Shown: positions 11,257-13,031 of the stretch, piece by piece
How the letters are laid out: each line of letters starts with the position of its first letter
Numbering within the stretch: the stretch's first letter is position 1
Virus record (IMG/VR): IMGVR_UViG_2563366982_000007
DNA from: a virus
Lineage: Duplodnaviria; Heunggongvirae; Uroviricota; Caudoviricetes
DNA: 27,589 nt
Direction: 5' to 3' (one strand)
Notes under the pieces: model-generated
What the model was told of the DNA's origin: nothing
Database searches by the model: none
Seen by the model: only the letters and a program-made list of their open reading frames with translations
Program-made: the position numbers and the translations under genes

Positions 11257-11608
11257 ACAAAAGTGCACAAATTTGCACAATTTTTTTGAACGACTTTTTG
11301 CCCTTCCGGCCCGCATGGCGGCTGGATCCGTCAAGGATCCGTGCGTGCACAAAAAACGCGTTTTTCCTGCGCGCAGGTGACGGGGGAACAGCCCGCGTTT
11401 CAGGGGGTAAACAGCATTCCCTGAACGATGTCGCAGAGACACAACAGAATGGCCATATTTCTCACGCTGAGCATGAAAAAGGCGTGAGGGCTTTTGATTT
11501 GATGGGGTGAAAGGTAAGGCCGTCAAAATCGCACTGAGGCAGCGAGAACATACAGTCAACGCGGTGGAATTGCGTAAGTGAAGTGGTCAACAAAAACTGG
11601 CCACCGAG

Positions 11609-12427
11609 TTAGAGTTTTTTCCAGTATCGATTTTCCGATTCGTTTGGTGGTAACCCACCATTATATTCGTGCGGTCTTAGTGCGCTGTAATATCCAACGA
11701 TATAGTCCGTTATTGCGTGAGCTGCATCGCTGAAGCTTACATAGCCCGTCGCCGGCACCCATTCGTTCTTCAGACTCCTGAAGAAGCGCTCCATTGGGCT
11801 GTTATCCCAGCAGTTTCCACGCCGACTCATACTCTGCCTGATCCGGTATCTCCACAGTAACTGCCGGAACTGCCTGCTCGTATAATGACTGCCTTGATCG
11901 CTGTGGAACATCACCCCGACGGGCTTACCACGGGTTTCCCATGCCATTTCCAGTGCTTTCATGGTAAGCCTGCTGTCCGGCGAGAACGACATGGCCCAGC
12001 CCACTGGTTTTCTTGCGAACAGGTCGAGAACAACGGCGAGGTACGCCCAGCGCTTACCCGTCCAGATATAGGTCACATCACCGCACCACACCTGATTTGG
12101 CTCGGTCACGGCGAACTGCCGTTCAAGGTAGTTAGGGATAGCAACATGTTCATGACCACCACGTTTATACCGGTAAGTCGGCTGCTGACAGCTGACCAGC
12201 CCCAGCTCTTTCATGAGTCTGCCAGCAAGCCAGCGCCCCATCTGGTAGCCTCTCTGGGTTGCCATTGTGGCGATGCTTCTTGCTCCGGCAGAGCCGTGGC
12301 TGATGCCATGCAGTTCAAGTACCTGGCTGCGTAATACAGCCCGTCTGCCGTCTGGCTTTTCAGGACGGTTTTTCCAGTATTTGTAGCTGCTGCGATGGAC
12401 CCCGAACACATGGCAGAGAGTGGCCAC
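11609..12427 (-). CDS. IS3-family transposase OrfB (DDE integrase-like catalytic domain), expressed as OrfAB fusion by -1 frameshift
   Basis: 272-aa ORF with DDE-transposase hallmarks ([36 protein letters not shown]). The frame stays open upstream toward the A6G slippery site. Confidence 0.85.
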
Positions 12428-12453
12428 AGGATAACGCGCCCTGAGTTTCCCGA

Positions 12454-12756
12454 TTATCGAGAACTGTTCAGGGAGTCTGACATCAAGAGCGCGGTAGCCT
12501 TTTTTAATATTTCATTTTCCATTTCAATACGTTGTAGCTTTTTCCTGAGCTCACGGATTTCAATTTGTTCCGGGGTAATAGGGGAGGCTTTTGGTGTTTT
12601 TCCCTGCCGCTCATCACGTAATTGTTTCACCCATCGCGTCATTGTGGAAAGGCCGACATCCATAGCGCTGGCTGCATCTGCCACGGTGTAATTCTGGTCA
12701 ACGACCAGTTGAGCGGATTCGCGTTTAAACTCTGCGCTGAAATTTCTTTTTTTCAT
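12454..12756 (-). CDS. IS3-family transposase OrfA (HTH and leucine-zipper)
   Basis: [53 protein letters not shown] is a typical IS911/IS3 OrfA. Start trimmed to the internal Met at 12756. Confidence 0.85.
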
Positions 12757-13031
12757 TATGGCACCTGTGTTGTTCTGAGGTGAGCATATCACCTCTGTTC
12801 AGGTGGCCAAATTCAGTAAACCACTTCAAAGAGTCTGACCGTCGATGGTGGCGATAAACTGGAAGGCGTCGTGAAATTATCTGATTGATACAGGAGCTGG
12901 AGAGCCGGGGCATAAATTTTTTATGCCCCGGCGAAGCAGCAGACAAGCGAAGCGCGTCAGCGATACGGCACCTTGCCGACCATACTTCATAAGTGCAAAA
13001 TACGAGCAAAGAAATCAATGGAGGCTGTCTT

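Follow-up and report, generated by a model that had tools for sequence, protein, structure and literature searches.

One of the described systems close to the element reported here is IS911 of Shigella dysenteriae, the model element of the IS3 family. For IS911, an OrfA of 100 aa, an OrfAB of 382 aa, inverted repeats of 36 bp and a programmed -1 frameshift have been published (PMC2909936). The 3' stimulator of the IS911 frameshift is a three-way junction (PMC5009743). Elements of the IS3 family transpose by a copy-out-paste-in route, in which the element passes through a circle with a junction promoter (PMC3299598). Among other members of the family, IS2, IS3 and IS150 share the two-ORF, -1 frameshifted transposase, the copy-out-paste-in route and the promoter at the abutted ends (PMC3299598) that are expected of the present element, but they have other sequences, other inverted repeats and other duplication lengths, and belong to different subgroups.

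The window, i.e. the whole stretch of DNA that we analysed, is 27,589 nucleotides long. We are highly confident that an intact ISEc52 has recently transposed within it into a conserved non-coding segment that separates the IetAS genes from the portal gene in a P88-like prophage, and that the trinucleotide AAG was duplicated on insertion. What the sequence shows is the anatomy of the element, its identity to ISEc52, the duplicated target and the empty site. ISEc52 is already known; the site that it occupies here had not been recorded before, and the insertion has no evident consequence for function.

The element lies on the minus strand at positions 11579-12828, and is identical (100%) over its length to copies labelled ISEc52, an IS3-family element and close relative of IS911. 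Its termini are TGAAGTGG... and ...CCACTTCA; in longer terminal readings of 11579-12828 it starts TGAAGTGGTCAAC... and finishes ...GTAAACCACTTCA. A length of exactly 1250 bp and imperfect terminal inverted repeats starting TGAAGTGG had both been claimed in an earlier note on this DNA, and both hold. A repeat finder ranked the two termini first among the inverted pairs, with arms of 27 nt and 78% complementarity; compared from the outside inwards, the ends match at 25 of their first 36 positions. IRL, the inverted repeat at the left end (12793..12828, minus strand), reads TGAAGTGGTTTACTGAATTTGGCCACCTGAACAGAG in element orientation, whereas the right one (IRR, 11579..11614, minus strand) corresponds to TGAAGTGGTCAACAAAAACTGGCCACCGAGTTAGAG on the plus strand and holds an outward-facing TTGACC. 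The length falls in the range of about 1.2-1.5 kb typical of the IS3 family, and the imperfect repeats end in 5'-TG...CA-3' as in that family.

The transposase genes also follow the arrangement of the IS3 family, with two consecutive reading frames, orfB lying -1 relative to orfA, and a slippery motif within their overlap. orfA (12454..12756, minus strand, 12756->12454) encodes a 100-aa regulator composed of a helix-turn-helix (HTH) and a coiled coil, as seen in its translation and in a Pfam HTH_Tnp_1 match to residues 1-74. The slippery heptamer A AAA AAG, the presumed site of programmed -1 frameshifting, is found at 12499..12505 on the minus strand, and our frame check places it in the codons TTA AAA AAG of orfA (12507->12499). 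The orfB frame (11609..12508, minus strand) stays open between a point slightly upstream of the slippery site and the stop codon ending at 11609; taking the ATT at 12508-12506 as a start would give an OrfB of 299 codons, although the frame is presumably expressed mainly as the C-terminal part of OrfAB. Shifting by -1 at A AAA AAG joins the two frames, with no interruption, into an OrfAB of 382 aa. The earlier description of intact OrfA and OrfB with an A6G motif is thus borne out by the 100-aa OrfA, the in-frame TTA AAA AAG and the open 382-aa fusion, and the values of 100 aa, 382 aa and 36 bp are those published for IS911 (PMC2909936).

At the protein level, OrfAB matches the Pfam families HTH_Tnp_1 (residues 1-74), HTH_21, rve (1.6e-31) and rve_3, and aligns end to end with the NCBIfam model transpos_IS3 ("IS3 family transposase"), scoring 380.6 bits where the cutoff is 160. 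The catalytic core (11645..12106, minus strand) contains D227 (12079-12077), D287 (11899-11897), E323 (11791-11789) and K330. Fifty-nine residues separate D227 from D287 and 35 separate D287 from E323, giving the DD(35)E spacing, and K330 lies seven residues past E323. The protein accordingly combines the N-terminal HTH of the family with a C-terminal DD(35)E (rve) domain, including the K/R residue seven positions past the glutamate.

Just 3' of the slippery site, a branched stem-loop is predicted at 12435..12493 on the minus strand, resembling the three-way-junction stimulator of IS911. The fold is no better than that of shuffled sequence (z-score -0.58); it is consistent with the published IS911 stimulator and does not constitute independent evidence for one. 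Relative to an IS911-labelled copy, the basal stem is retained with one U-A pair changed to U-G. Upstream of the slippery site, the window element has GGAA where the IS911-labelled copy has GGAG. We take GGAG at this position to be a frameshift stimulator, as in the IS911 literature, so that frameshifting may be less efficient in the window element.

By analogy with its relatives, we infer frameshifting, circle formation and current activity of the element as follows. Ribosomes translating orfA would slip by -1 at A AAA AAG in some passes, producing the 382-aa OrfAB. This protein, with its HTH, multimerisation region and DD(35)E core, would bind the 36-bp ends and cut one strand. The single-strand cleavage would lead to a figure-of-eight, to be copied into a circle, and the abutted ends of the circle would form a strong junction promoter (TTGACC, 17 nt, TTTACT). 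Finally, the circle would integrate at a new site through staggered cuts 3 bp apart.

To the extent that sequence can speak to this, a virtual circle junction assembled from IRR, a 3-bp spacer and IRL contains TTGACC and TTTACT separated by 17 nt, so that a junction promoter is plausible as a sequence-compatible assignment. In the linear context, scanning 11150-13100 for the promoter consensus gave no promoter-like site. A hybrid outward promoter, combining TTGACC of IRR with the flanking DNA, was considered and rejected because the left flank, inspected by eye, holds no -10-like hexamer at 16-18 nt. We also rejected targeting beside a sequence resembling the ends of the element, as described for IS911: the 40-bp flanks score no better than shuffled sequence, 242 and 431 of 2000 shuffles scoring as well as the flanks against IRL and IRR, respectively.

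The intactness of the element might be questioned on the grounds of its annotation. PGAP flags eight copies that are 100% identical to the window element as pseudo and "frameshifted", with coordinates reaching a TGA inside IRR. The ISEc52 copy that PGAP accepts as a "programmed frameshift" gene, in strain GN4143, is 97.6% identical and has a run of five adenines (A5) near the 3' end where the window element has six (A6; window positions 11615-11620, element positions 1209-1214). With A6, the product ends in ...YWKKL and has 382 aa; with A5 it is seven residues longer, giving 389 aa ending at the TGA within IRR. Since the accepted reference is the A5 version of 389 aa, PGAP labels the identical A6 copies "frameshifted".

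One could accordingly regard the element as a dead relic whose transposase is a pseudogene that merely looks intact, pointing not only to the eight identical copies marked pseudo and frameshifted but also to the extra A, which shortens the C-terminus relative to the "programmed frameshift" copy, and to the replacement of the upstream GGAG by GGAA. We consider this unlikely. The 382 aa obtained with A6 is the exact length of the experimentally studied IS911 OrfAB (PMC2909936), and the DDE residues are intact. Moreover, this variant is present with 100% identity at at least six different sites, mostly with perfect 3-bp duplications, which argues for recent spread: the eight other identical copies represent six independent sites, and five of the six carry a perfect duplication (CAG, GTT, TGT, AAC and CTC). 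Even a defective transposase would leave both ends of the element intact, so that mobilisation in trans by other copies would be possible anyway. Given the 382-aa product shared with published IS911 OrfAB and the 100% identical copies at many sites, we take the PGAP flag to be artefactual, stemming from its reference protein rather than from decay. A "frameshifted" label on ISEc52 copies, then, need not mean that they have decayed.

The name of the element deserves a comment, since it had been described as IS911-like. Full-length copies occur in 1,800 of 5,426 complete E. coli genomes searched by megablast, and many of the E. coli copies, both chromosomal and plasmid-borne and including those of Nissle 1917 and M1/5, are 100% identical to the window element over 1250 bp. 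PGAP labels all of the 100%-identical copies "IS3-like element ISEc52 family transposase". In addition, a preprint reports that an ISfinder BLAST of an IS of Nissle 1917 returned ISEc52 with full identity, and one Nissle 1917 copy matches the window element at 100% identity. From these two observations together, we conclude that the element is ISEc52, a name that is based on the NCBI (PGAP) labels and on the ISfinder result of that one preprint. Other copies of ISEc52 are likewise flanked by 3-bp duplications, and the insertion site is the sole difference of the window copy.

Under the isoform rule of ISfinder, two elements count as isoforms when they have at least 95% nucleotide identity. The identity of the window element to ISEc52 exceeds this value, as judged indirectly through the PGAP labels, the preprint and the Nissle copy. 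As proxies for the original Shigella dysenteriae IS911 record we used five full-length copies with the PGAP label "IS911 family", to which the window element is 94.0-94.2% identical. The reading that the window element is IS911 itself, i.e. an isoform in need of no separate name, draws on the equal length, the ORF sizes of 100 and 382 aa, the shared slippery site, the identical IRR and the near-identical IRL of an IS911-labelled copy. It is nonetheless very improbable, because the identity to the five IS911-labelled copies stays under the 95% threshold, while that to ISEc52-labelled copies is 100%. "IS911-like" is therefore acceptable as a description, the two elements belonging to the same IS3 family and sharing its architecture, whereas "IS911" as a name would not be, the sequence being about 94% identical to IS911-labelled copies and 100% identical to ISEc52-labelled ones.

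ISEc52 and IS911 have in common the length of 1250 bp, the 36-bp TG...CA repeats, the sizes of OrfA and OrfAB, the -1 shift on A AAA AAG, the branched 3' structure (predicted here), the DDE core and the 3-bp duplications, and they differ by about 6% in nucleotide sequence. In the one PGAP-labelled IS911 proxy whose ends were aligned, IRR is identical to that of the window element. Positions 9-11 of IRL read CAC in the IS911-labelled copy and TTT here, so that the predicted -10 hexamer of the circle junction would be CACACT in the former and TTTACT in the latter. At its slippery site (element position 324), the IS911-labelled comparison copy (NZ_AP022207.1) reads A5G and not A6G. This places its orfB in the +1 frame of orfA, even though the annotation says "programmed frameshift"; the copy has probably been mutated.

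The element is flanked on both sides by AAG, at 11576..11578 and 12829..12831, as had been noticed before. Beyond the two AAGs the bases are no longer the same, which limits the direct repeat to exactly 3 bp, a length within the 3-4 bp of the short target-site duplications of the IS3 family. The comparison with IS-free relatives that had been proposed for this repeat gave a clear result. The prophage is shared by E. coli M1/5 (NZ_CP053296.1), where it occupies the same position in the chromosome, beside btuC. Outside the IS, the window differs from M1/5 by three mismatches and one gap over 20.6 kb (99.98% identity), and the flanks of the IS are 100% identical to M1/5 over 2 kb. The M1/5 empty site is uninterrupted and has a single AAG (...GCGTAAG followed directly by AGTC...); removal of the 1250 bp and one AAG from the window restores the M1/5 sequence exactly, with ...GGAATTGCGTAAG joined to AGTCTGACC... 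Fourteen more loci, fetched via neighbouring proteins, have the empty-site 22-mer as well, and the filled right junction is absent from all 14. A single AAG is hence found at the junction in 15 of 15 empty-site loci examined, each of the two AAG copies in the window corresponding to this one trinucleotide.

These data show that AAG is a real target duplication. The notion that it is coincidental, the element having arrived by recombination or a larger rearrangement rather than by simple transposition, could appeal to the chance expectation of 1/64 for a 3-bp flanking repeat taken alone and to a copy in the same prophage of M1/5 that lacks a duplication and is tied to a 3.4-kb deletion, but it is in effect ruled out, since removing 1250 bp and one AAG yields the exact sequence of M1/5 and 14 other loci and the flanks are collinear with those of the empty-site relatives, with no loss or inversion.

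The filled site is rare. Reconstructed over 400 bp, the empty site runs through without interruption in 1,099 complete genomes and also in four phage records, at 99.3%, while the filled site occurs in none of the 5,426 complete E. coli genomes. Among draft assemblies, contig GCA_030006535.1 has the identical left junction and ends 53 bp into the IS, and contig GCA_048037335.1 ends 2 bp short of the junction, as short-read assemblies do at repeats. Scans for the exact left-junction 30-mer in metagenome and GTDB-representative collections returned no matches. From the identity to other copies, the flanks identical to M1/5 and this rarity, it follows that the insertion is younger than the tiny divergence between the window and M1/5. 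The view in the earlier note of a recent transposition that has not decayed is therefore supported by the empty site, the identical copies and the identical flanks. Owing to its absence from the 5,426 complete genomes, the insertion is a useful strain marker.

The host prophage is P88-like (Xuanwuvirus, Peduoviridae), a member of the P2 family and not P2 itself. It encodes an integrase (1109-2251, minus strand), an HTH repressor (2151-2495, minus strand), the replication protein A (Phage_GPA, 4895-7660) and the portal (13571-14617, minus strand), and the terminase, capsid, lysis and tail genes were assigned from the M1/5 locus, which is annotated and nearly identical. The interval from A to the portal gene holds two adjacent genes on the plus strand, namely those of IetA, an AAA ATPase (7841-8962; PADLOC IetA 1e-77, Pfam AAA), and of IetS, an S8 protease (8986-11211; PADLOC IetS 1.1e-51, Pfam Peptidase_S8), which together would make up a predicted IetAS anti-phage system. 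Our search of the literature on IetAS in P2-like prophages found nothing directly useful. Reading by eye, we noted a GC-rich hairpin followed by a T-rich run after ietS, at about 11225-11250.

The IS had been placed beside a defence cassette in the A-Q accessory region, and this location is correct: IetA and IetS are adjacent genes, and the IS lies between A and the portal gene. The further suggestion that such insertions remodel the hotspot is not demonstrated by this copy, which begins 367 bp beyond the ietS stop codon and leaves the IetA/IetS pair (7841..11211) undisrupted. On the other side, the IS ends 203 bp before an ORF of 174 aa. It occupies a non-coding segment of about 400 bp, reaching from a candidate cos site to the portal operon, that is 92-99% conserved among P88-like phages.

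The 174-aa ORF (13032-13556) belongs to phrog_5091, a family of unknown function, and gave no Pfam or PADLOC match. It lies between a terminator-like hairpin and the portal stop codon. The ORF is missing from P88 and P88_4B11, yet it is extremely widespread (18,125 index blocks), and may represent a small cargo gene in a mini-hotspot between cos and the portal. Prophages that share this ORF and the portal gene have other cargo at the A-to-portal hotspot (DUF4760, for example) or none.

The hairpin itself, a perfect 13-bp hairpin at 12904..12932, is 76 bp from IRL. In P88 and P88_4B11 it closes the conserved non-coding segment and abuts the portal stop codon, and P2 has its tQ terminator at the same position; it is probably the late-operon terminator. 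On the other side of the IS, the two ends of the linear record of P88_4B11 (LR595891) fall between window positions 11298 and 11299, and the surrounding 11250-11350 comprises a GC-rich stretch flanked by four TGCACAA repeats. We therefore regard this region, about 280 bp left of the IS, as a candidate cos and terminase-binding region, its position being taken solely from the ends of the linear P88_4B11 record. The P2 cos 19-mer GGCGAGGCGGGGAAAGCAC has no match in the window with up to three mismatches.

As to its consequences, the insertion breaks no ORF and the sequence on either side of it is still collinear with the empty-site relatives; the effect on the prophage is therefore probably neutral. 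Two other consequences can be imagined from the position of the element, whose transposase is oriented as the late portal-terminase operon, 76 bp past the terminator-like hairpin of that operon. The IS may impair packaging or termination of the late operon, or else read-through upon induction may switch on the transposase, with the IS travelling in virions. If the former were true, the insertion would help the defence-carrying prophage to stay locked in its host; if the latter, the IS would be carried in virions about 280 bp from the genome end. We regard both as improbable and retain a neutral effect as the probable one.

As mentioned above, M1/5 has a copy of its own in this prophage. An identical ISEc52 in the same orientation is found at positions 4136-5385 of the M1/5 locus, in place of window positions 530-3964, which contain the 5' part of a DUF1640-like gene, the integrase, the HTH repressor and early genes. 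This copy is flanked by GTT and CTT, with no duplication. It looks like an IS-associated deletion of 3.4 kb that would ground the prophage. The same IS could thus be either harmless in a prophage, as in the window, or grounding to it, as with the integrase-deleting copy of M1/5. The present case matters little beyond annotation: it seems to be a clean, datable instance in which an E. coli IS, presumably active, has landed in a P2-family prophage next to a defence hotspot.

A further difference between the two prophages concerns an ORF of 626 aa located between the lysis and tail genes (21337-23217), which has DUF1737, a SASA-type carbohydrate esterase domain and DUF6645, and is frameshifted in M1/5.
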